In this document: piece by piece, positions 4,324 to 38,662 of the stretch
How the letters are laid out: each line of letters begins with the position of its first letter
How positions within the stretch are numbered: the stretch's first letter is position 1
Source: Escherichia phage vB_EcoS_fFiEco03
Direction: 5' to 3' (one strand)
Sequence record: NC_073315.1
DNA: 43,947 bases
Translations under genes and position numbers: made by a program
Notes under the pieces: model-generated
Seen by the model: only the letters and a program-made list of their open reading frames with translations
Told to the model about the DNA's origin: nothing
Database searches by the model: none

Positions 4324-4353
4324 AGGCCCCGTTAAGGGGCCTTAGTTTTATTT
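4324..4353. terminator. Bidirectional intrinsic terminator at convergent gene ends
   Basis: AGGCCCC-GTTAA-GGGGCCT stem-loop followed by TAGTTTTATTT; lies between the + gene ending 4319 and the - gene ending 4348. Confidence 0.6.
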
Positions 4354-4869
4354 AAATCGCGCTGGCATTAGCACCATAAATGCAGTGTTTGAAAACGATA
4401 TTTTGCATCCTCTGGTTTGGTCCTGGAAATCGAAACGAGCAATTTCATTTTTGTATGCCTTAGAAATCTTGTGCGCGTCTGCCAAGTAGGGCATGGTAAA
4501 TCCTATGCTATCAACTGCCCCCGGCGTGATGTGCGCCACACGTCGCCAGTCAGGAAATTTTCCGTCTACAACATCCACCGGAAGTGTACATATAAGCGCA
4601 CGACTATCGTCATAGAAAGATACACTGCCGTTGTCGTGGTCTACTTCCGCGTAGTTAAATTTAGAAGGCTCTCTCCCTTTTATGTCTATGAGAGCCCCAT
4701 TCTCAACGTTTGTCTTAACATTGTCGCAGAACAATCTATGGCCGTCCGTAGACACTATCAATCCTTCCGGGTCTATGTAAAAAGCGTTCAGATAGTAGCG
4801 TACATCATTTTTAGCCCTGCAGATTTTCGCCCCTACATACGCGGGAAAAGTAATTACTGTGGCAACCAT
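4348..4869 (-). CDS. Truncated DnaN-like (beta sliding clamp-like) protein, 173 aa
   Basis: Contains DVRYYLN...TDGHRL, DGKFPDWRRV and C-terminal MVLMPARFK, matching E. coli DnaN landmarks (DVRYYLNGMLF...TDGHRL, DGRFPDYRRV, VVMPMRL) recalled from memory; AGGAG RBS and own promoter. Confidence 0.6.
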   Translation of the reverse strand: MVATVITFPAYVGAKICRAKNDVRYYLNAFYIDPEGLIVSTDGHRLFCDNVKTNVENGALIDIKGREPSKFNYAEVDHDNGSVSFYDDSRALICTLPVDVVDGKFPDWRRVAHITPGAVDSIGFTMPYLADAHKISKAYKNEIARFDFQDQTRGCKISFSNTAFMVLMPARFK

Positions 4870-4925: not shown

Positions 4926-4991
4926 ACTATTTGTTTACGTATTCCAGTTATTCCACTCAATTGTAAATGTTGGAATAAACTATTCGAATAG

Positions 4992-5020
4992 TTGACTTTT
5001 CACTAAAAATATGCTAAGCT
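4992..5020 (+). promoter_or_regulatory. Sigma70-like promoter, class III (TTGACT-N17-TAAGCT, extended -10 TG)
   Basis: -35 TTGACT, 17-nt spacer ending in TGC, -10 TAAGCT. Near-identical to the promoter at 36798..36826. Confidence 0.6.
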
Positions 5021-5026
5021 CCACCT

Positions 5027-5134
5027 GAGCTTGTGAAGTATGAACAAGCGACCGCGGCGCGGGCAGGTAACGGAGCGGGACGTAAGTCCTGAGTGTAGTT
5101 ACGCTGACGCGTTCGGTAGGGCCATACTCTATTG
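5027..5134 (+). ncRNA. Promoter-proximal conserved structured RNA element, copy A (candidate sRNA or cis-acting leader)
   Basis: Begins at the predicted +1 of the 4992 promoter; about 80 percent identical to 36832..36941; two hairpins conserved with compensatory changes; frame not conserved between copies; terminator follows at 5201..5228. Confidence 0.45.
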
Positions 5135-5200
5135 CTTGTGTAAAAAGTAACTGGTTTACTGAGATTACGCCGTTTCAGTGTTTAAATGATAAGGACTAGC

Positions 5201-5228
5201 GCCCCGCTTTATGGCGGGGCTTTACTTA
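5201..5228 (+). terminator. Intrinsic terminator downstream of RNA element copy A
   Basis: GCCCCGC-TTTATG-GCGGGGC 7-bp GC stem followed by TTTACTT. Confidence 0.5.
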
Positions 5229-5244
5229 TCGAGAAAGGAGAAAC

Positions 5245-5631
5245 ATGAATCTTAAAGCAACTGTCGTAGCGGGAGCATGTTTCATCATCCTGGCTTACGC
5301 ACACGGCATCTATCAGTACCGCAGCGGCTGGAACGAAGGCCGGGCGAATCTCGTTTCGCAGCAACAGCAGGAAGCACAGGCTGAGCTGGTGAAGAAAACA
5401 CAACGGCAGCAGCAGGATGAATCAAAGGCCGCCGCCGCTGACAACGAAGGCAAGACGAAATCAGAGGTGATTACCCGTGAAGTCGTTAAGTACATTAAAA
5501 CGCCTGGCCGCAGCGTGTGCACTTTCGACGATGCTCGCGTCCTGCTCAAGTCCCACGCCGTTGCCAACGCCAATTCCATCCCCGGATACGACGATGATGC
5601 AGCCGCCGTGCAAACTGGCACCGCCAAGTAG
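5245..5631 (+). CDS. i-spanin (Rz-like)
   Basis: 128 aa with N-terminal TM segment (ATVVAGACFIILAYA), Q/E-rich coiled-coil region, and an overlapping +1-frame lipoprotein ORF. Confidence 0.65.
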   Translation: MNLKATVVAGACFIILAYAHGIYQYRSGWNEGRANLVSQQQQEAQAELVKKTQRQQQDESKAAAADNEGKTKSEVITREVVKYIKTPGRSVCTFDDARVLLKSHAVANANSIPGYDDDAAAVQTGTAK

Positions 5632-5740
5632 CGACGCTGACGAGGATTTAGCTATCGACGTTCAGAACGCCGAATGCGTACGGCAATTGCGCCTGAAAGT
5701 ATTCATGTTGCAGGATTACGTGAGGAATATTCTGGAATAG
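5477..5740 (+). CDS. o-spanin (Rz1-like outer-membrane lipoprotein), overlapping the i-spanin gene in the +1 frame
   Basis: GTG start with AGAGG RBS; signal peptide ending in lipobox LASC; proline-rich mature part (SPTPLPTPIPSP). Confidence 0.6.
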   Translation: MKSLSTLKRLAAACALSTMLASCSSPTPLPTPIPSPDTTMMQPPCKLAPPSSDADEDLAIDVQNAECVRQLRLKVFMLQDYVRNILE

Positions 5741-5822
5741 TTGCCTTGCATGTTGGAATAATTTATTCTTGACATGTAAATCCGGGTGGCCCGGATTCCA
5801 ACGTCCAGGGGACATACTGACT

Positions 5823-6527
5823 ATGAATCGTTTTTTACGTTATCCGTTCCAGGAAGAAGCTGGGGCAGAAGATAAATCTGGCGGTGGCGACGCTCCAAAA
5901 ATGTTCACCGCTGAAGAAGTTCAGGCGCTGATTGAGAAAGAAGTTGCCGGACTTAAGGCCAATCAGGAAGCATTGCTGGCGGAGAAGAAAGAAGCTGCCC
6001 GTAAAGCAAAAGAGGCCGAAGAGGAACGTCAGCGCGCGCACCAGGAGGCGCTAAAAGCCGCCGGTAAGATGGACGAGTTCGAAAAGACGATTCGTAGCCA
6101 GTATGACCCGGTGTTAGCCGAGAAAGATGGTCGCATCTCCAAAATGGCAGAGCGCATCCTCGGCAGCGAACGTAAAGCGGTGTTAGGCTCTTTCGCAGGT
6201 GATTTCATCACACCGGAAGCAGTAGACATTCTTGCTCCGTTCGTTAAGACTGAGTTTGAAGGCGATGACGTGGTTACTAAGTTTGTTGGTGCAGACGGCA
6301 ACGTAATCACAACTGACCCGGAACAGTTCCGCAAGTACCTGCGCGAACACAAAGCGTTTTCGCATTTGATTAAAGCAAATGCAGCTTCCGGCGGCGGGGC
6401 TTCCGGTAGCAAAGGCGGCGGGGCCGCACCAGCGTTTAAAGACATGAGTGAAGCGGAGCGTATCGCTCTGTACGAATCGAACCCTGCCGAATTTGAACGG
6501 CAACTTAAAGCCCTGAGGAAAAAATAA
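5823..6527 (+). CDS. Scaffolding protein (putative)
   Basis: About 234 aa, highly charged and coiled-coil-rich (AEKKEAARKAKEAEEERQRAHQE), immediately upstream of and stop/start-overlapping the major capsid gene. Confidence 0.6.
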   Translation: MNRFLRYPFQEEAGAEDKSGGGDAPKMFTAEEVQALIEKEVAGLKANQEALLAEKKEAARKAKEAEEERQRAHQEALKAAGKMDEFEKTIRSQYDPVLAEKDGRISKMAERILGSERKAVLGSFAGDFITPEAVDILAPFVKTEFEGDDVVTKFVGADGNVITTDPEQFRKYLREHKAFSHLIKANAASGGGASGSKGGGAAPAFKDMSEAERIALYESNPAEFERQLKALRKK

Positions 6528-7576
6528 TGGCAATTACTACTATCGGCGATATCGTAACTGGTAAAGAATCGGTAATCCTGTCCTACATGACAGAGGACCC
6601 GGTAGAGAAAACCGCGTTCTTCCAGTCCGGTATCCTTACCTCGACTCCGTACGCCGCCGCTATCGCAAACGGCCCGTCCAACAAAGCTGTTCTGCCGTAC
6701 TGGAAAGCGATTGATACCTCTATCGAACCGAACTACTCGAACGATGTGTATCAGGATGTCGCCACCCCACGTAACGTGCAAACCGGTGAGATGGATGTTC
6801 GCGTGGCTTATCTGAACGAAGGTTTCGGCCAGGCGGATTTGACTGTTGAACTGACCAGCCAGAACCCGCTGCAATCCGTAGCGTCCCGTCTGGATAACTT
6901 CTGGCAGCGTCAGGCACAACGCCGTCTGATTGCTACCGCGCTCGGTCTGTACAACGACAACGTAGCCGCTACCGACGCATACCACGAGCAGAACGACATG
7001 GTAGTGGACGTGTCCGCAACCCTGGGCTTCGACTCGGGCGCGTTCATCGACGCTACCCAGACTATGGGTGATGCGCTGATGGGCAACGGCGGTGAAGTGT
7101 TGGGCGCTATCGCGATGCACAGCTTCGTATATGCGCAGGCACGTAAACAGCAGCTTATCGACTTCATCCGCGACGCCGATAACAACACCATGTTTGCTAC
7201 TTACCAGGGCTACCGCGTGATTGTTGACGACAGCATGACCGTAGTCGGCACCGGCCCGAGCCGTAAGTTCATCTCCATCATCTTCGGTAACGGTGCTATC
7301 GGTTACGGCGAGGGCAACCCGTCTAACCCGCTGGAATACGAACGCGAAGCGTCTCGTGGTAACGGTGGTGGCGTTGAAACCCTGTGGACCCGTAAGACCT
7401 GGTTGCTGCATCCGTTTGGTTACAGCTTCACCAGCGCGGTAATCACTGGCAACGGGACCGAGACTATCGCCCGCTCTGCTTCCTGGCAGGACCTGGCGAA
7501 CGCCTCCAACTGGAACCGTGTTGTTGACCGTAAGCATGTACCTATTGCCTTCCTGGTAACTGGCGTCGGTGCTTAA
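6527..7576 (+). CDS. Major capsid protein
   Basis: 349 aa following the scaffold gene (TAATG overlap) and followed by a strong terminator; position and size typical. Confidence 0.8.
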   Translation: MAITTIGDIVTGKESVILSYMTEDPVEKTAFFQSGILTSTPYAAAIANGPSNKAVLPYWKAIDTSIEPNYSNDVYQDVATPRNVQTGEMDVRVAYLNEGFGQADLTVELTSQNPLQSVASRLDNFWQRQAQRRLIATALGLYNDNVAATDAYHEQNDMVVDVSATLGFDSGAFIDATQTMGDALMGNGGEVLGAIAMHSFVYAQARKQQLIDFIRDADNNTMFATYQGYRVIVDDSMTVVGTGPSRKFISIIFGNGAIGYGEGNPSNPLEYEREASRGNGGGVETLWTRKTWLLHPFGYSFTSAVITGNGTETIARSASWQDLANASNWNRVVDRKHVPIAFLVTGVGA

Positions 7577-10493: not shown

Positions 10494-10906
10494 TGGGCTA
10501 CTTTGAAGACTTAACCAAAGCGTTCGACGTGCCGCTGGTAGCCTTCGGGGCCGCCAACGGCATCAGGGTAGCGCTTGAGAACATCGACGCTCCGACGTCA
10601 ACCGATACGCCATACCTTGCGAGTTACATGCTACTGGCGGATACCGAGCAGGCCGACTTATTTTTCACCGAGCAACGTGCAGGTATTTATCAGGTAGACA
10701 TTAACTACGCATCTGTGAAAGGTAGCGCGCCAATCAATAAAATGGCAGACTTACTTAACACGGCATTCAAAGCAGGTAAGTCTTTTTCACGTAACGACAT
10801 CTGCGCCGAAGTGCAATCGGTTAGCCTGGGGCCGCTGATTGTAGAAAATGGATGGGCCAAAAGACCATTGTCGATTAACTTTATTGCATTCACCAAGAGG
10901 CTGTGA
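10490..10906 (+). CDS. Putative tail completion or terminator protein
   Basis: 138-aa ORF immediately upstream of the major tail gene; synteny only. Confidence 0.4.
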   Translation: MMGYFEDLTKAFDVPLVAFGAANGIRVALENIDAPTSTDTPYLASYMLLADTEQADLFFTEQRAGIYQVDINYASVKGSAPINKMADLLNTAFKAGKSFSRNDICAEVQSVSLGPLIVENGWAKRPLSINFIAFTKRL

Positions 10907-10908
10907 AT

Positions 10909-12075
10909 ATGGCTACAACTCCTTTTAAGGGCGCGAATACCGCGCAATTCTATGTGGCGGAAACTACCCCGGGCGTGACACCGACTTCCCCGGTATGGTC
11001 GCCGTTGCGCAATACTGGCGGTGTTCCTGCGGTAACCCGCGACGCGCTGACCTCCAACGAACTCGACGGCAGCAGAGAAACCACATCCATCCGCACCGGT
11101 AACAAACAGGTTAGCGGGGAGTACGCCATCGAACTTAGCTCACGTAGCCAGGATGATTTCCTTGCGGGTGCTATGACTTCTACGTGGCAGGATGGGGTAG
11201 AGATTACGGGTGCTGAAATTACGGTCGCTCCAGCAGGTAAAACATTCACCCGCGCTGCCGGTAGCTTCATTACTGACGGTGTAGAAGTTGGCGACCTGAT
11301 TGCGTTCACCGACTTAACCGGCGACAACGCAAAACCGTTTATCGTGACTGAGGTTTCTGCTCTTGTAGTTACGGGTGCGGGTATCCAGCACACGCTGACA
11401 GCAGAGACTGTAACCACCGACGCTAAAACAGGCGATAAACTGGAAACCGGTAACGCATGTAAGACGTTCTCCATCCTGACATGGTTCAAAGGACAGTGCG
11501 GGAACCCTGACGCGTACATGCTGACCAAAGGCGTGGAAATCTCCGGTTTCACCATTGAACAGGCCGTAAACGCGATGGTGACAGGCAGCTTCCCGTTCAT
11601 CGGTCTGAGTCAGGAAATTCTTTCTGCACCGCCAGCAGGTTCTGATTTCTCTCAGGTGACGTTTACCGATGAGCCGTTCTCATCCGTAGATGTGTCTGTG
11701 TTCGACGGTTCTACGCCGTTGCGTTGCGATACTCTGACCATCACCAACGACAACGGTGCGTCCGCACAGTTCGAACTAGGCAACAGTAGCGTCGCGTTCG
11801 TGGAACGTGGTCGCGCGGCTAACACATTCTCCATCTCCGGCAAGCTGTACGACATGGCGATGATTCAGAAGTTTATCAACGAACAGCAGGTAGAGATTAA
11901 CTCTATTCTGGCGGGGGTAAACGGGGCTATGTCTTTCAGCCTGAAACGTGCCGAGTTGACCGCAGTTACGCCAGAAATATCTGGCCCAGAATCAATCACC
12001 CAGAGCATAGAGGGACAGTCCACCGGCAATCAGTACCAGTCATCTATCGTAATTCAGCGTATTAGTTACACATAA
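10909..12075 (+). CDS. Major tail protein
   Basis: ATG at 10909 with AAGAGG RBS; about 388 aa; followed by a strong terminator and, further on, the chaperone and tape measure genes. Confidence 0.65.
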   Translation: MATTPFKGANTAQFYVAETTPGVTPTSPVWSPLRNTGGVPAVTRDALTSNELDGSRETTSIRTGNKQVSGEYAIELSSRSQDDFLAGAMTSTWQDGVEITGAEITVAPAGKTFTRAAGSFITDGVEVGDLIAFTDLTGDNAKPFIVTEVSALVVTGAGIQHTLTAETVTTDAKTGDKLETGNACKTFSILTWFKGQCGNPDAYMLTKGVEISGFTIEQAVNAMVTGSFPFIGLSQEILSAPPAGSDFSQVTFTDEPFSSVDVSVFDGSTPLRCDTLTITNDNGASAQFELGNSSVAFVERGRAANTFSISGKLYDMAMIQKFINEQQVEINSILAGVNGAMSFSLKRAELTAVTPEISGPESITQSIEGQSTGNQYQSSIVIQRISYT

Positions 12076-12120
12076 CTTGTGGTATAAGAAGAGTAAAGGA
12101 TAGCTTTAGCGGGCGAAAAA

Positions 12121-12150
12121 GAGAGGGGTCGTGCCCTCTCTTTCCTTTAT
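12121..12150 (+). terminator. Intrinsic terminator after the major tail gene
   Basis: GAGAGGG-GTCGTG-CCCTCTC stem-loop followed by TTTCCTTTAT. Confidence 0.65.
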
Positions 12151-12182
12151 ACGGTAAATACACGAGCCTGACGAGGTGAATA

Positions 12183-12815
12183 ATGTTCTTGTATGAAGAA
12201 TTTGAAAAGATACCAGCATCAAAACGGGCGGTATCATGCCGTAAAACAATCTGCGGAGTCGGTGTCAACGATGCAGATTTCACCACCAGTATTTTCAACG
12301 GCAAAAAGTCTGTTAACCACCCGGTGTACGATATTTGGTGTGCGATGATATTCAGGTGCTACCATGGGTCCGTTAAGCATCCAACATACTCAGGAGTGGT
12401 AGTGTGTGAAGACTGGCTGTATTTCTCCAACTACTTTAAATGGTACAAAGATAACTACGTAGAGGGTTGGCATGTTGACAAAGATTTGCTTACGGATTCT
12501 AAAGAATACTCACCGGATACCTGTATATTTGTCCCAAGAGTTTTAAACAACTTTCTAACCGACAGCGCAGCGGCTAGAGGTGACCTACCGATAGGCCTTA
12601 CTTATAGGAAAACAAACGGCAAGATTCGATGCAGGGTTAATAATCCGCTAACCGGGGTGCGCGAAAACTTAGGCGATTTTACCGATTTGGATGAAGCCAT
12701 CAAGGCCAGAACGCTGCGGAAGTTAGAGATAGCCGGAGAACTTAAGCCACTTATGGATTCCATAGACGGGAGAATCTATCCGAGGGCCGTTTCTGTAATT
12801 AAGGCACAACGATAA
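12183..12815 (+). CDS. Putative homing endonuclease (HNH-like nuclease domain plus C-terminal AP2-like DNA-binding domain)
   Basis: N-terminal W..M..RC...HP.Y.G..VC.DW..F..F..W...EGWHVDKDLL...YSPDTC pattern; C-terminal GKIRCRVNNPLTGVRENLGDFTDLDEAIKA (AP2-like); free-standing between terminators. Confidence 0.55.
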   Translation: MFLYEEFEKIPASKRAVSCRKTICGVGVNDADFTTSIFNGKKSVNHPVYDIWCAMIFRCYHGSVKHPTYSGVVVCEDWLYFSNYFKWYKDNYVEGWHVDKDLLTDSKEYSPDTCIFVPRVLNNFLTDSAAARGDLPIGLTYRKTNGKIRCRVNNPLTGVRENLGDFTDLDEAIKARTLRKLEIAGELKPLMDSIDGRIYPRAVSVIKAQR

Positions 12816-12819
12816 AACT

Positions 12820-12845
12820 AAGGCCCCTTTCGGGGCCTTTTTCTT
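12820..12845. terminator. Bidirectional intrinsic terminator (28-nt sequence repeated at 24735..24762)
   Basis: AAGGCCCC-TTTC-GGGGCCTT with U-rich flanks on both strands; convergent junction. Confidence 0.7.
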
Positions 12846-13074
12846 ACTCATCAATATTGCTTCGGTACTCCCGTAACTTCTCCAGGCTTTCGATTGCCTC
12901 AGCTAAGTCTGTCCAGGTGTCCTTGTGACCACGTAAACCCATACACAATAGCTTCTTCAATGCGTGCTGTAACGCCGGGTCGCGTATGTCGAAGGCGCGT
13001 AGCACGTCGTAAACGTCTACAGTCATGGTGCTGCCGTGGGTGTTTGTCATTGTGCGGTTGTATTTATTTGTCAC
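12844..13074 (-). CDS. Hypothetical small protein (start ambiguous: 13074, 13050 or 13026)
   Basis: Last gene of the - strand island; no clear SD for any candidate start. Confidence 0.4.
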   Translation of the reverse strand: MTNKYNRTMTNTHGSTMTVDVYDVLRAFDIRDPALQHALKKLLCMGLRGHKDTWTDLAEAIESLEKLREYRSNIDE

Positions 13075-13264
13075 GGTTAACTCTCTTAAATCGGGCTATG
13101 CCTGACTCGTTAATGCTGCCTATTTCAAAGAAGCTGCGATATTTAGGCGAATACATTCTTACGTCGCCGTTCTCTAGGGTGACCCCTTCATATACAGCGC
13201 CTACTTCGAATCCATTTTTCTCCGCGTACGGACTCACATCGGTGCATTCATACATATCTTTCAT
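13064..13264 (-). CDS. Hypothetical protein, 66 aa
   Basis: ATG overlaps the stop of the upstream phosphoesterase gene (ATGA coupling). Confidence 0.5.
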   Translation of the reverse strand: MKDMYECTDVSPYAEKNGFEVGAVYEGVTLENGDVRMYSPKYRSFFEIGSINESGIARFKRVNRDK

Positions 13265-14391
13265 CCCAGCATCTCCGGTGAAATAGTTAAACGTGCGACC
13301 TCGCCATATTCGGCGCTATAAGTAATTACATTTGCACTACGGCCCGACATCCATCCGCCGCGCGAGGCGTAGGCGTCTTTAGCCGCTAAGGTGCGGTGTT
13401 GCTCAACAATCATGTTACGGCTTTCTACAATCTTCTGGTGGTGGAGGTGGCCTACGTGGGCGTAGCTGTAAACGCTTTCGCCAAATGCTTTGCGGAACTT
13501 GGCAATCATAACCGGTTCGATAGCGTCTAATCGCGCCTTATGCCCGTGGTGAAAGAACAGCGTAGTTTTGCCGTGTTTGACCATCTTGTAAACATCCGGC
13601 GACGTATCGACGAACACACGCGGCTCATTGTCGTACAGCGTACTAAACATCTCAGCTAACCAAATCATTCCGCTTTCGTCGTGGTTCCCTTGCACGATAA
13701 GCAAGCGAACAGATTTATGCTTAACCAGCGCCATGTCAACAACACGGCGTACCATACGAATCATGTAGCGGACCAGTTTCTGATAACGAGTGTCCGCATC
13801 AAGAACATGACCACTCGCTGGCGTAACCGCATCCAGACTATCGAAGTGCGCGAAGTCACCCAGCAGGTTAATAACCCCAGTTCCTGCATCTGGTGCTTTC
13901 TGAAACGCCGCATCGAACCATCGGGAGAACAGGTCTTCCGCAATCTTCATATCCCAGTCGTCGCCGCTCTCGTCAGCCCAGGCCAGCATACCAAGATGGA
14001 AATCAGATACCGTGTACAGATTGAGTAGTTTATCGTCGCGTTTGGCTCGAGTCGCTTTAACCGGCGCAACTGGCGTAATCTCCGACTTCATTCCTTCGAT
14101 CACGGCTTTCATTAACTCGACCTGACGTTCGGCGTCGGTGTCTGTCTTAACCCATTGCAACTTAGTGTTGCCGAACTCGTCCACCAGTGACGACGTTCCT
14201 TTAATTTTGTAGCCGTCCGGGACAAGATGGCTAACGTCACGACCGTGACCTACGCCTTTCTTCGCCAGCTTCGCTTTACGGATACGAATAACTCGGTCTG
14301 AGATGCCGTATTTACGGGATATGTCGATAATCTTTGTTCCGGCGTTCAATTCTTCCTGTAACTGTTCGTCGGTTATTTTCTTCCGGGCCAT
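13261..14391 (-). CDS. Calcineurin-like metallophosphoesterase with N-terminal HTH (SbcD/Mre11-like motifs)
   Basis: Motifs SDFHLG, GDFAHFD, GNHDES, FHHGH and GHLHH in canonical order; N-terminal HTH-like segment (ISRKYGISDRVIRIRKAKL); GAGGAAG RBS. Confidence 0.7.
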   Translation of the reverse strand: MARKKITDEQLQEELNAGTKIIDISRKYGISDRVIRIRKAKLAKKGVGHGRDVSHLVPDGYKIKGTSSLVDEFGNTKLQWVKTDTDAERQVELMKAVIEGMKSEITPVAPVKATRAKRDDKLLNLYTVSDFHLGMLAWADESGDDWDMKIAEDLFSRWFDAAFQKAPDAGTGVINLLGDFAHFDSLDAVTPASGHVLDADTRYQKLVRYMIRMVRRVVDMALVKHKSVRLLIVQGNHDESGMIWLAEMFSTLYDNEPRVFVDTSPDVYKMVKHGKTTLFFHHGHKARLDAIEPVMIAKFRKAFGESVYSYAHVGHLHHQKIVESRNMIVEQHRTLAAKDAYASRGGWMSGRSANVITYSAEYGEVARLTISPEMLG

Positions 14392-14429
14392 GCTTACTTC
14401 CTCGTGTTTAGGATTTGTCCTATACTAGC

Positions 14430-14621
14430 TCACTTCTCTTTGACATTCGAGTTGCAAGCCCAGATTAAAATAAATACCCACGGCAGCAGAACCCAGCCGA
14501 GAAACAGATTAGCCATGAATATCGCCAGTTTCGCTTTATGTCCGCGCATATGGGCCACTAAAAACGGGATAAAATAAACTAAAACGATAATGATTAAGAA
14601 GAACATAGTAATACCTGTCAT
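14430..14621 (-). CDS. Superinfection-immunity-like small membrane protein (2 TM)
   Basis: 63 aa from ATG 14621 with AGGAG RBS; motif YFIPFLVAHMRGHKAKLAIFMANLFLGWVLLPWVFILIWA resembles the Imm-type superinfection immunity family (recalled). Confidence 0.5.
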   Translation of the reverse strand: MTGITMFFLIIIVLVYFIPFLVAHMRGHKAKLAIFMANLFLGWVLLPWVFILIWACNSNVKEK

Positions 14622-14662
14622 GGTGTAGCTCCTGTTTGAGTTAACATTGTTGGTGTAAGTGA

Positions 14663-14691
14663 ATAGTATCCTATTATGTTGGGGTGCGCAA
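14663..14691 (-). promoter_or_regulatory. Sigma70-like promoter, class I (TTGCGC-N17-TACTAT), drives the reverse island
   Basis: On the - strand: TTGCGC, spacer ACCCCAACATAATAGGA, TACTAT. Near-identical to the + strand promoter at 37107..37135. Confidence 0.55.
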
Positions 14692-14799
14692 GTAATGTGA
14701 TAGAATAATTTTGCGCCTAGTGTCGCACACGAAAAGCGGGTGGTTCCCGTCTGGCGCATTTACCATTAACCTGTAACCTCTTAACCAAAGGATTAAAGA

Positions 14800-15216
14800 A
14801 TGAAACTTTCTGATTTTTATTACGAAGCTGAGGCAGAAAAAGGCGCCCGTATGCCGATACCACTGAAAGACGGCACCGATTCAGGGGAGTGGCTGAACGT
14901 TGTTTCACCGGAGGCAGACGTTGCTGTTAAAGCTATGAGGGCGTTTACACTTGCGTACCGCGCGGCATTAGGTAAATTGAAACCGCTTCGCGATAAATGC
15001 GAGGAACTGAAAGATTTCTCGGAATACAACATCAAGATGGAAGACGCCGCAACGGACCTTAACCGCCAGTTAGCGCTTGAACTGGTTAACGGTTGGAGTC
15101 TCGACGATGAATTTAATAAAGAGAACCTGAATACTCTTTTCTCACAATATAAACGACTCGCTGAACACGTTGTTGTTTTCCACAATGAACAGCTTCACCA
15201 ATTGCAGGAAAAGTAG
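14800..15216 (+). CDS. Tail assembly chaperone (gpG-like)
   Basis: 138-aa acidic protein directly upstream of the tape measure gene, with an overlapping downstream ORF in the -1 frame. Confidence 0.65.
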   Translation: MKLSDFYYEAEAEKGARMPIPLKDGTDSGEWLNVVSPEADVAVKAMRAFTLAYRAALGKLKPLRDKCEELKDFSEYNIKMEDAATDLNRQLALELVNGWSLDDEFNKENLNTLFSQYKRLAEHVVVFHNEQLHQLQEK

Positions 15217-15581
15217 ACGCGTTGCTCCAGTTTGCCCGTTGGAACTTCATAACCCGCCACAAACGGCGGGAGTTTGACAGTATCGCCGACGGGCATAAAG
15301 CCGCGCTAATTGCTATGGGGGTTATGCAAGACGCGCCGGAAGCAACGCAGGACACAGGGCCGGAATGCCCCCCTGAGCTATTAACCACCTTCGAGAAGTA
15401 CAGGGAAATCAAATTCACCCGCCGAGTGGACGATGATGGCATCAAGATGTACCCGCGCGAACAGTTAAGATGGTCGGATTTAGTGGCATACAGCACCGTT
15501 TCAGGCCAGAATATAGGCATGTTCGAATCTGACATCATCATGAGCTTAGACGCTATTTTCGAGGGTAGAAACGATGGCTGA
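15189..15581 (+). CDS. Tail assembly chaperone -1 frameshift extension (gpGT-like T segment)
   Basis: -1 frame open from 15189 and overlapping the last 8 codons of the G-like gene; candidate slip site GAA_AAG just before the G stop; ends overlapping the tape measure start. Confidence 0.45.
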   Translation, partial: TASPIAGKVDALLQFARWNFITRHKRREFDSIADGHKAALIAMGVMQDAPEATQDTGPECPPELLTTFEKYREIKFTRRVDDDGIKMYPREQLRWSDLVAYSTVSGQNIGMFESDIIMSLDAIFEGRNDG

Positions 15582-17910
15582 TGTAGCTAGTTTAGTTGTA
15601 AAAGTATCAGAGCAAGGCGCGAAAGCTACATCAGACCGTCTTGATAACCTTTCCAAGTCTGCAAAGGTAGCCGGAGCTGCGGTAGCGGGCCTCGCTTCCA
15701 TCGTCGCCGCTACCGCGTACAAGGCCGCACAGGAACTGGTAGACTCCCAACGGCAACTGGACAAGATGTCCGCCAGCCTGAAAACACTAACCGGAAGCAC
15801 GCAGGGGGCAAGACAGGCGTTAAGCATCCTGCAAGACTTCGCGCGCGACACTCCGTATGGCCTTGAACAGGCGGTAGAGGGATTCCGTAAACTGGTGGCT
15901 CTCGGCCTTACCCCCTCAGAAGAAGCGTTGCGCTCCTATGGCAACACTGCCGCTGCTATGGGTAAAGACCTTAATCAGATGATTGAGGCCGTTGCGGACG
16001 CTAGTACATTTGAATTTGAGCGCCTTAAAGAATTTGGTATCAAGGCCAAGCAGAACAAAAACGATGTTGAATTTACATTCCAGGGCACCACTACGGTAGT
16101 TAAGAAGAGCGCTGCCGACATCGAGCAATACCTGCTCAACATTGGTAACGTAAACTTCGCGGGGGCTATGGCGGACCAGGCCAACACACTTAACGGGGCC
16201 ATCGCCAGTGCCAGCGATTCCTGGTCGCAGTTAAAAATGACACTGGCTACCAGCCTTGATGTTGGTGCTCTTGCGGAACCTATCCGGTACATCGATGATT
16301 TAATCCAGGAACTTAACGCACAGGTGGCATCCGGTGAACTCGCCGCCGAGATGCGTATGTGGGGTGACATCGCATCAGAAGTGGGCAGCGCGATAGAGAT
16401 GTCGTTCGACGCGGCATTTGGTTTCGTAGGCGACGCGATAAACGGGCTGAATGAACTTTGGGATTTTAGCAGTAAAAGTATCACCGATAGCGGTGAACAA
16501 ACGGCGACAACCATCGCGGAATCAGCCGCCGATGCACTCGATTTCATAGCGGAAGAATTTACCGCGATGGAGCGATTCTTTGAAGATATGGTTAAAGGGG
16601 CACAGGACGCTGGCCGGTTGGTGAAAGCTGCCTTCACACCAGGGGAATCCGTAGACGTAGCAAAAAACATTAACTTCCAGTTAGGGATGGCACTGGATAC
16701 TCAGCGTGATGTTGCGGACCTGACCCGTAAAAGTTTCCGCGAACAGGTTGAGGCTCAGCAAAATATTGTCGCGCTTAAACGCGCAGCGTATGACATCGAC
16801 AAAGAAGCCGCTAAGGAAGAAGGGCTTAGTAAATTTAAGGTAACTGGTACTGGTGGCGGGTCCGAAGATGATAATGCTGGTGCAAAAGCCGCCAAGAAAG
16901 CTGCGGACGCGTTCGAGCGCCAGAAGAAAGCCGCGGAGGATTTCTACTACCAGTCGATTCATCTCAATGACGACGTATTCCAGAAAATAGAAGCTAATCA
17001 GGAGCAACAGTTAACCAAGCTACAAGAGTTTTACGGCAACCAGCTTCTTAGCGACCAGCAATACGAGAACGCCAAAACTCAAATTATGCTGGAGGCGGAC
17101 ACCGCACGTCAGGAAGAACTCGCCAAGCGGGAGAAAGAACGGCAGGAGAAGAACCAGAAAGGTGAAGACTTCATGGCTCAGATTATGGGTCAGAATGCCG
17201 CAGAGCTTGAGCTTTTGGAGATTCAGGAACAACAAAAACTTGACGTTGCAGACCGATATCGCGAACAGAACCTTATTAACGAGGAGCAGTACCAGGCTGC
17301 GGTTAATGCTATAAACGACCAGTATGCTTTGAAACGTGCCAACGCTACCGGTAACGCTTTCGGAATGATGGCGGATAACATGAAGGCCTCACTAGGGGAG
17401 GCGTCTGCCGCATACAAAGCGTTTGCCATTGCGCAGGCTACAATAGCCACATACACCTCTGCCATCGAGGCTTATAAATCTGCATCGGCTATCCCTATTG
17501 TTGGATGGGTGCTCGGGCCTGTAGCCGCCGCCGCGGCGGTAGCCGCAGGTCTGGCGAACATAGGTAAGATTCGCTCAGCACGTGAACAGGGTGGTAACTT
17601 AGCTGCCGGGCAGCTATCCACCATTGCAGAACGTAACAAGCCGGAAGTTATTATGCCTGCGGGGGCGTCACGCGTACGTACCGCGGAACAGATGCGCCAG
17701 ATTATGGGCGAGAACGGCAACAAGTCAGGCGGTGACAGCGTGACAATCGTCAACAACACCACCGGACGAGTTGATTCCGCCGTTACAGAGCGTGACGACG
17801 AAGGGCGGTTACGTGTTATCATCAGCGAAACAGTATCGGCGGCGTTACAAGATAGCAACAGTGCAATCTCCAAGTCCCGCCGGGCTACGCGAAACCAGCC
17901 GGGGTATTAA
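15574..17910 (+). CDS. Tape measure protein
   Basis: 778 aa, Ala-rich, long coiled-coil segments, positioned after the chaperone pair. Confidence 0.85.
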   Translation: MADVASLVVKVSEQGAKATSDRLDNLSKSAKVAGAAVAGLASIVAATAYKAAQELVDSQRQLDKMSASLKTLTGSTQGARQALSILQDFARDTPYGLEQAVEGFRKLVALGLTPSEEALRSYGNTAAAMGKDLNQMIEAVADASTFEFERLKEFGIKAKQNKNDVEFTFQGTTTVVKKSAADIEQYLLNIGNVNFAGAMADQANTLNGAIASASDSWSQLKMTLATSLDVGALAEPIRYIDDLIQELNAQVASGELAAEMRMWGDIASEVGSAIEMSFDAAFGFVGDAINGLNELWDFSSKSITDSGEQTATTIAESAADALDFIAEEFTAMERFFEDMVKGAQDAGRLVKAAFTPGESVDVAKNINFQLGMALDTQRDVADLTRKSFREQVEAQQNIVALKRAAYDIDKEAAKEEGLSKFKVTGTGGGSEDDNAGAKAAKKAADAFERQKKAAEDFYYQSIHLNDDVFQKIEANQEQQLTKLQEFYGNQLLSDQQYENAKTQIMLEADTARQEELAKREKERQEKNQKGEDFMAQIMGQNAAELELLEIQEQQKLDVADRYREQNLINEEQYQAAVNAINDQYALKRANATGNAFGMMADNMKASLGEASAAYKAFAIAQATIATYTSAIEAYKSASAIPIVGWVLGPVAAAAAVAAGLANIGKIRSAREQGGNLAAGQLSTIAERNKPEVIMPAGASRVRTAEQMRQIMGENGNKSGGDSVTIVNNTTGRVDSAVTERDDEGRLRVIISETVSAALQDSNSAISKSRRATRNQPGY

Positions 17911-37106: not shown

Positions 37107-37135
37107 TTGCACACCCCAATATAATAGGATACTAT
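37107..37135 (+). promoter_or_regulatory. Sigma70-like promoter, class I (TTGCAC-N17-TACTAT)
   Basis: TTGCAC, spacer ACCCCAATATAATAGGA, TACTAT; followed by a conserved AACGAGA..GGAG leader. Confidence 0.6.
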
Positions 37136-38585: not shown

Positions 38586-38614
38586 TTGCACACTGGGATA
38601 GAATAGGCTACTAT
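38586..38614 (+). promoter_or_regulatory. Sigma70-like promoter, class I (TTGCAC-N17-TACTAT)
   Basis: TTGCAC, spacer ACTGGGATAGAATAGGC, TACTAT; conserved AACGAGAGGAG leader. Confidence 0.6.
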
Positions 38615-38635: not shown

Positions 38636-38662
38636 GAGACGGAATATGAGTAACAAAAACGA
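38636..38662 (+). repeat. 27-nt direct repeat, copy 1 (RBS plus first 6 codons; copy 2 at 38821..38847)
   Basis: GAGACGgaATATGAGTAACAAAAACGA versus GAGACGtaTTATGAGTAACAAAAACGA (25 of 27 identical). Confidence 0.7.

Follow-up and report, generated by a model that had tools for sequence, protein, structure and literature searches.

A helix-turn-helix metallophosphoesterase of Escherichia phage vB_EcoS_fFiEco03 as a candidate early DNA nuclease

Metallophosphoesterases (MPEs) that act on DNA include Mre11, in which motif II reads GDLFH; DP1, the small subunit of archaeal PolD and a 3'-5' proofreading exonuclease, which consists of an OB-fold and a phosphodiesterase (PDE) domain bound to the DP2 catalytic subunit; and the Pseudomonas putida Nuclease MPE, a Mn-dependent endonuclease for single-stranded DNA that belongs to the Lhr-ligase repair cluster. 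In phages, the predicted metallo-phosphatase A1 of T5 is reported to be essential and sufficient for host chromosome degradation, working with the DNA-binding protein A2, and the HAD-type deoxynucleoside monophosphate (dNMP) phosphatase Dmp is encoded nearby (bioRxiv 10.64898/2026.04.02.716235). Gp48 of mycobacteriophage A10ZJ24 is an early MPE with phosphodiesterase activity that is reported to damage the genomic DNA of the host and to be required when the phage replicates its DNA in M. tuberculosis (PMC12287305). Here we compare these systems with a gene of Escherichia phage vB_EcoS_fFiEco03 (sequence record NC_073315.1; the whole stretch of 43,947 nucleotides (nt) is called the window below), which encodes an MPE domain behind an N-terminal helix-turn-helix (HTH) segment and is referred to as HTH-MPE.

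The comparison suggests, with about even credence on our part, that HTH-MPE acts early as a Mn-dependent nuclease on DNA, to which its own HTH tethers it. It would be a stand-alone nuclease of the Mre11/SbcD/PolD-DP1 structural type, brought to DNA by a LuxR/sigma70-region-4-like HTH and not by a Rad50/SbcC partner, and host RNA polymerase would transcribe its cassette from a sigma70-like promoter of the class that precedes presumed-early operons of small open reading frames (ORFs). Such an enzyme would most likely break down DNA or process its ends during infection. It could degrade the host chromosome, to which about half of our credence in a DNA nuclease goes, with host shut-off and nucleotide supply as the outcome, as reported for the unrelated MPEs T5 A1 and A10ZJ24 Gp48; or it could resect or otherwise process DNA ends in support of recombination-dependent replication.

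Domain architecture and active site

The gene and the three parts of its product are as follows.

13261..14391, minus strand: HTH-metallophosphoesterase gene (376 amino acids (aa), ATG start, AGGA-type ribosome-binding site (RBS))
14257..14379, minus strand: three-helix HTH (aa 5-45), LuxR/GerE/sigma70-region-4-like (AlphaFold2 helices, Pfam on relatives, PDB profile)
14077..14229, minus strand: family-specific beta-hairpin (61-85) and helix (87-102) (alignment, AlphaFold2 model)
13264..14037, minus strand: binuclear MPE domain (aa 119-376) with motifs I-V (alignment, AlphaFold2 model, Foldseek)

HTH-MPE is real, intact and well conserved, and belongs to an already catalogued family whose name is unsettled. 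It matches PHROG 704 ("DNA repair exonuclease") at E=6.3e-165, with residues 4-375 aligned to positions 2-389 of the 390-position profile. There are 3,579 homologues in a 90%-clustered database, 4,673 matching 50%-identity clusters (1,159 of these at E<=1e-30), and matches in 2,056 of 50,697 phage records. The region 12000-15600 is ~99.9% identical in DNA to Escherichia phage vB_EcoS_fPoEco01 (Kagunavirus, Guernseyvirinae), in which the counterpart PE1_022 is named "metallophosphoesterase" with an HHpred note of similarity to the PolD small subunit. Other relatives are called DNA repair exonuclease, phosphoesterase, phosphatase, 3'-phosphatase/5'-polynucleotide kinase, DNA polymerase II small subunit, winged-HTH protein, sigma70_r4_2 protein, kinase-phosphatase or oxidoreductase, so that PHROG 704-type MPEs carry at least seven different annotation names, all of them predictions. 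The siphovirus members fPoEco01 PE1_022, K1H ORF17 and T1 CPTT1_064 ('exonuclease') belong to the same family over their full length, with no structural difference. Papers on Metis and PUA-Cal-HAD also speak of a 'phosphoesterase', but that protein serves host defence and is of another family.

Conservation was assessed in an alignment of HTH-MPE with 49 representatives (50 sequences, 31-50% identity), the diverse relatives being drawn from the 50%-cluster search, since the proteins returned from the 90%-cluster database were all at least 96% identical. The initial annotation, made from the letters of the window, had listed five canonical MPE motifs, and all five are in place: SDFHLG (residues 129-134), GDFAHFD (178-184), GNHDES (235-240), FHHGH (280-284) and GHLHH (314-318). 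Residues D130, H132, G178, D179, T190, N236, H237, H282, G314 and H317 are invariant across the alignment, while H182, H284 and H315 are retained in at least 90% of the sequences. The two-metal site of the calcineurin-like MPE superfamily (DxH, GD, GNH[D/E], H, GHxH) is thus complete, and the motif set together with the size of the family is far beyond chance. HTH-MPE scores below the gathering thresholds of both relevant Pfam models (Metallophos, PF00149, 18.9 versus 21.5 bits; Metallophos_2, PF12850, 21.9 versus 27 bits), and its superfamily membership is therefore assigned from motifs and fold; some relatives do pass (P0130, 25.1 bits). Since the metal ligands are invariant down to 31% identity, the protein appears to be under selection for catalysis, and the best explanation of the gene is a catalytically competent two-metal phosphodiesterase, with a metal that is probably Mn2+.

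Structure prediction, which had been proposed with the initial annotation, gave a confident AlphaFold2 model built on the 50-sequence alignment (mean predicted local distance difference test score 89.8, predicted template modelling score 0.76), in which the HTH is followed by the alpha/beta sandwich of the MPE fold. The N-terminal bundle consists of helices 8-16, 21-28 and 32-44, a disordered linker spans 46-52, and the hairpin is formed by strands 61-70 and 76-85. The hairpin consensus PxGxxxKGxSTLYxxDGxxxxQWVK is well conserved, with W80 nearly invariant, and a further family-specific insert (VTPxSGHxLDAD) lies inside the MPE domain. The chain stops with the core sandwich at residue 376 and has no capping domain in the model.

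The HTH-like nature of the N-terminus, also proposed initially, is supported by the modelled helices, by Pfam HTH models that match many relatives (Sigma70_r4_2 1.5e-9, GerE 2.4e-8, HTH_8, HTH_23), and by weak matches of the family profile to the GerE, RhlR and DesR HTH chains in the PDB (E 0.07-0.8; GerE 0.068). A Pfam scan of the HTH-MPE sequence itself found no HTH match. Conservation across the 50-sequence alignment is lowest in the HTH, which is fused to the MPE in most relatives; some, among them one longer relative, carry two HTHs. Model, Pfam matches and PDB profile together support a putatively DNA-binding domain, and its fusion to the enzyme speaks for a substrate that is a polymeric nucleic acid, which we infer to be DNA. 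A PDB search with the single HTH-MPE sequence returned spurious matches only (STIV B204 ATPase, E 0.09).

Fold neighbours and described nucleases

Foldseek places Mre11 (6.5e-9), DP1 (1.3e-8) and the class III cyclic-nucleotide phosphodiesterase Rv0805 (2e-8) almost level, and many phage MPEs of ~400 aa match in the BFVD viral fold library. The modelled fold puts HTH-MPE nearest the nuclease branch, and taken alone it would also fit a small-molecule diesterase. Motif II offers a further criterion: in the GDFAH of HTH-MPE, H182 follows the metal-binding Asp by three residues (+3), as it does in 49 of the 50 relatives, the arrangement found in Mre11/SbcD, whereas the class III enzymes (Rv0805, CpdA/Icc) lack both the +3 His and an HTH. 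Searched against the PDB, the family profile reaches no MPE chains other than the P. putida Nuclease MPE and the T. maritima Mre11/SbcD, both at E of at least 1 and so not significant. Motif II and these profile matches lean towards a nuclease.

Likeness to SbcD/Mre11, noted in the initial annotation for SDFHLG and GNHDES, is seen in the motif II His and in the Foldseek ranking; it does not extend to the capping domain, to a Rad50/SbcC partner or to curated models, with no match to Pfam SbcD_C or the Mre11 DNA-binding model and no relevant NCBIfam match. HTH-MPE shares ~15% identity with Mre11/SbcD, with 184-191 residues aligned out of chains of 319-362, and carries the N-terminal HTH and beta-hairpin module in place of the accessory parts of those proteins. 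For DP1, the likeness is confined to the PDE domain (12% identity); the phage is without DP2, and its polymerase is of the PolA type, with a DnaQ-like exonuclease of its own. The P. putida Nuclease MPE is the best MPE profile match in the PDB and resembles HTH-MPE in standing alone without Rad50 and in having an identical motif II core (LGDFLH).

Among phage proteins, T5 A1 offers a parallel as an early metallo-phosphatase-type protein paired with a DNA binder. It differs in length (556 aa), in family (PHROG 1745) and in being also needed for second-step DNA transfer. Specific homology to A1 was considered and rejected: hhalign gave a probability of 15-21%, whether run with one sequence or with a profile of 22, and only NHDxxxSxWL around motif III was shared. 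The MPE of cluster A mycobacteriophages (Gp48; Bxb1 gp47-type) is ~255 aa long, has no HTH and bears motif I at its extreme N-terminus; homology to Bxb1 gp47 was likewise rejected (hhalign probability 8%).

Many of the ~530-aa T5 A1 homologues carry N-terminal HTH Pfam domains (HTH_23, HTH_38, HTH_7, CENP-B_N). Fusion of an HTH to an MPE seems to be a recurrent phage solution, judging from these domain assignments in at least two unrelated phage MPE families.

Distribution and changing neighbours

HTH-MPE lies in a four-gene minus-strand cassette in the order promoter, Imm_superinfect gene, HTH-MPE, orf66, orf76 and bidirectional terminator. The cassette is wedged between the tail tube gene (10903-12075, plus strand) and the tail assembly chaperone gene (14800-15216, plus strand) and is far from the replication genes, as the initial annotation had it in placing the gene outside the replication module. 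Its proposed co-transcription with an immunity-like gene also agrees with the layout, the two being on the same strand and 38 nt apart with one promoter before and one terminator after them.

14430..14621, minus strand: superinfection-immunity-like small membrane protein (Imm), 63 aa (Pfam Imm_superinfect, E=8.7e-14)

An AGGAG RBS precedes the Imm ATG at 14621. Relatives of Imm are 59-68 aa long, and the 63-aa form holds the whole Imm_superinfect domain; the 109-aa ORF to 14759 that is annotated in a near-identical GenBank record is probably an over-extension running through the promoter.

A census of 87 loci, found with a 9-sequence alignment of the HTH-MPE family, revealed no universally conserved partner of the MPE. 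Recurrent neighbours are endolysin, HNH, HAD_PNKP plus kinase, and terminase genes, and guilt by association is a weak signal for this family. Among phages with MPEs 97-99% identical, the MPE is the constant element of the cassette and the slots on both sides are exchange hot-spots. The upstream slot holds either Imm or an unrelated 108-aa signal-peptide protein, as in phage K1H (97% identical MPE), and the downstream slot holds HAD_PNKP plus dNMP-kinase-like genes, orf76 alone, orf66 plus orf76, or an HNH gene.

Further afield, T1 CPTT1_064 is a full-length orthologue (45% protein identity, HTH included), and in T1 and other Drexlerviridae the MPE is the last gene of a helicase-resolvase-Dam operon, just before the lysis genes, while in Dhillonvirus-like contigs it lies immediately upstream of the terminase genes. 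The Imm neighbour is absent outside Guernseyvirinae. Among Salmonella-phage records, 373 carry the MPE and 362 the Guernseyvirinae tail tube protein, and because these counts are about equal the MPE appears from the records to be a core gene of Guernseyvirinae and not a patchy accessory.

These neighbours bear on the interpretation offered with the initial annotation, in which co-transcription with the immunity-like gene made degradation of a host signalling nucleotide, or another countermeasure to host defence, conceivable. Hydrolysis of cyclic mono-, di- or oligonucleotide messengers would disarm CBASS, Pycsar, type III CRISPR or similar systems; the MPE superfamily contains cyclic-nucleotide phosphodiesterases, with Rv0805 standing beside Mre11 and DP1 in the Foldseek ranking, and the cassette has swappable, moron-like neighbours including the immunity-like gene. 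T5 A1 orthologues were at one time predicted to have a similar role (PMC7824862), and the later A1 report favours DNA degradation (bioRxiv 10.64898/2026.04.02.716235). We consider messenger hydrolysis quite unlikely for HTH-MPE. A fused HTH has no obvious role with a small-molecule substrate, the distribution is core-like, motif II is of the Mre11 type (GDxxH), and scans of PADLOC and other defence and anti-defence families found no match. The phage anti-CBASS and anti-Pycsar proteins have folds other than that of HTH-MPE, Acb1 being a 2H-fold and Apyc1 a metallo-beta-lactamase-fold enzyme, both unrelated to the MPE fold. Since the flanking genes swap among phages with 97-99% identical MPEs, the link to Imm is incidental. 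The observations of the initial annotation are thus confirmed and its interpretation is supported in part, the step from the immunity-like neighbour to an anti-signalling role being the part that fails: an HTH-MPE in this setting is ordinary and catalogued, and its neighbour lends that role no real support.

The downstream slot suggests other possibilities. Genes for a HAD_PNKP phosphatase and a P-loop kinase-like protein directly follow the MPE in K1H, EF2-1, Webervirus GH-K3 and 12 other viral contigs, and in several of these trios, which occur in two different phage families, stop and start codons overlap. The HAD_PNKP protein (Pfam PF25109, 72 bits; phrog_415 'polynucleotide kinase') is also weakly similar to the T5 dNMP phosphatase Dmp, and for the P-loop protein the match is to a dNMP kinase (phrog_139, 2.6e-46). 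Such neighbours, seen in K1H-type Kagunaviruses and in Webervirus, belong to nucleic-acid or nucleotide metabolism and not to signalling, and fit either nucleotide salvage after DNA degradation or the healing of nucleic-acid ends.

In the second case, HTH-MPE would resemble the MPE domain of bacterial Pnkp: as a 2',3'-cyclic phosphodiesterase or 3'-phosphatase it would treat the ends of broken RNA (tRNA) or DNA, and it would team with the PNKP-type HAD phosphatase and the P-loop kinase against damage by host nucleases. The gene trio speaks for this end-healing role, which we nevertheless regard as unlikely. Both partner genes are absent from the window, despite being present beside 97-99% identical MPEs, and the genome contains no RNA ligase or tRNA genes. 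In T1, the polynucleotide kinase (PNK) and deoxynucleotide kinase (dNK) genes are remote from the MPE (~12 kb across the map ends, ~35 kb within the record). The dNMP-kinase score of the P-loop protein and the Dmp-like HAD protein suit nucleotide salvage equally well, and the fold neighbours are nucleases, not lambda-phosphatase-like enzymes. The T1 genes for the PNK-type phosphatase and the deoxynucleotide kinase (4948-6534 of locus L092; 4823-5956 of locus L093) are interrupted by an HNH gene.

The same trio would also accommodate a nucleotide-pool enzyme, in which HTH-MPE hydrolyzes free deoxynucleoside di- or triphosphates, Ap4A-type dinucleotides and the like alongside the HAD phosphatase and dNMP kinase, adjusting the pools from which phage DNA is made. 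This seems improbable, given the HTH fusion, the lack of the partners in this phage and their separation from the MPE in T1, and closest fold neighbours that work on polymers.

Returning to the DNA nuclease favoured here, a bolder version holds that HTH-MPE is the early host-chromosome-degrading nuclease of T1-like, Jersey-like and Kaguna-like siphoviruses, which would thereby end host defence gene expression. We think this version rather unlikely. It would make HTH-MPE a single-chain functional counterpart of T5 A1 (plus A2) and Gp48, in which the HTH gives targeting or self/non-self selectivity, and in which the swappable HAD phosphatase and dNMP kinase channel the freed nucleotides into phage DNA. 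Few uncharacterised enzymes of virulent enterobacterial siphoviruses are as widespread as this family, whose carriers include T1 and many phages considered for therapy against E. coli, Salmonella and Klebsiella. If its members do degrade host DNA or process DNA ends, this would bear on host shut-off, on the transduction risk of therapeutic phages, and on sensitivity to defences that sense genome degradation.

Promoter class and cassette features

The timing of HTH-MPE expression is suggested by the cassette promoter, which belongs to a class found at four places in the window.

14663..14691, minus strand: putative sigma70-like cassette promoter TTGCGC-17 nt-TACTAT, 42 nt upstream of the Imm start codon
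4897..4925, minus strand: second copy, TTGCAG-17-TACTAT, before the DNA-metabolism gene 4348-4869
37107..37135, plus strand: near-identical copy before the first rightward small-ORF operon (ATG 37169)
38586..38614, plus strand: fourth promoter of the class, before a small ORF at 38646
4348-4869, minus strand: 173-aa gene inside the head module (phrog_3007, 'RusA-like resolvase'), with the same promoter type as the cassette

The motif was derived from a comparative alignment of upstream regions in Kaguna- and Jerseyviruses, in which the -35 (TTGCGC/TTGCAC) and -10 (TACTAT/TATTAT) elements and their 17-nt spacing are fixed while the spacer sequence diverges. The window holds three copies of TTGCRC-N17-TAYTAT where 0.01 would be expected, and four of the extended -10 region AAYATAATAGGrTACTAT against an expected 0.09. 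The promoter at 37107..37135 shares 36 of 40 bases with that of the cassette, including a downstream TCACTTA, and the two rightward small-ORF operons with a promoter of this class adjoin the replication control region. The gene 4348-4869 has weaker matches to DNA polymerase processivity-factor families, and GenBank notes a POL3Bc (beta-clamp-like) region in it. By their sequence and placement, the four promoters look like a candidate early regulon of Guernseyvirinae, and we infer for the cassette a promoter class that depends on host RNA polymerase and is probably early. Since it shares this class with the presumed early operons, HTH-MPE would be made early despite its late tail-gene surroundings. 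A promoter class common to the MPE cassette, another DNA-metabolism gene and the small-ORF operons favours the reading as an early DNA nuclease.

Several points weigh against that reading. The capping domain and Rad50/SbcC-binding region of Mre11/SbcD are missing from HTH-MPE, and no Rad50/SbcC gene is annotated in the 99.9% identical genome or among the neighbours at the 87 loci. T5 A1 and Gp48 serve as analogies only and give no homology-based support, and a literature search found no functional study of the PHROG 704-type family. Early expression is deduced solely from the promoter motif, and a generic promoter scan of the window showed no enrichment over shuffles. The phage genome also contains no DNA methylase or other visible means of self-protection, so that indiscriminate degradation of host DNA is harder to picture unless the HTH or the timing makes it selective.

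Upstream of HTH-MPE itself lies a further candidate regulatory element.

14408-14423, minus strand: palindrome TAGGA-CAAA-TCCTA, between a -10-like TAGTAT and the MPE RBS

This palindrome occurs once in the window, and Kagunaviruses retain it regardless of which gene lies upstream; an operator and an RNA hairpin are both conceivable. Together with the likeness of the HTH to LuxR/GerE/sigma70 region 4, it might suggest that HTH-MPE is primarily a transcription factor (an auto-regulator or early/late switch); alternatively, its MPE domain would dephosphorylate proteins, like lambda Ser/Thr phosphatase. We hold both to be highly improbable; the PPP Ser/Thr phosphatase signatures GDxHG, GDxVDRG and GNHE are not found in HTH-MPE. 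As a repeated operator of the HTH, the palindrome ATAGGACAAATCCTAA was considered and rejected, its one occurrence in the window being a count reached by 24 of 100 shuffles.

The remaining features lie downstream of HTH-MPE.

13064..13264, minus strand: orf66, whose ATG overlaps the MPE stop codon (ATGA)
12844..13074, minus strand: orf76, a conserved small ORF of many Kaguna- and Jerseyviruses
12820..12839, no strand assigned: bidirectional intrinsic terminator AAGGCCCC-GAAA-GGGGCCTT, ending both the cassette and the convergent HNH gene
12183-12815, plus strand: HNH endonuclease gene (phrog_953, E 1e-68), convergent to the cassette

No family match was found for orf66, which occurs in only some close relatives. 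The product of orf76 matches only the C-terminal ~70 aa of several PHROGs of 210-250 aa (phrog_2452; phrog_17613 'ATPase') and resembles a free-standing copy of their C-terminal domain. At least 80% of the region 12000-15600 is covered in just 5 phage records, and the HNH gene therefore behaves as a sporadic homing-endonuclease insertion. A second HNH-like gene is present in the head region of a related record.

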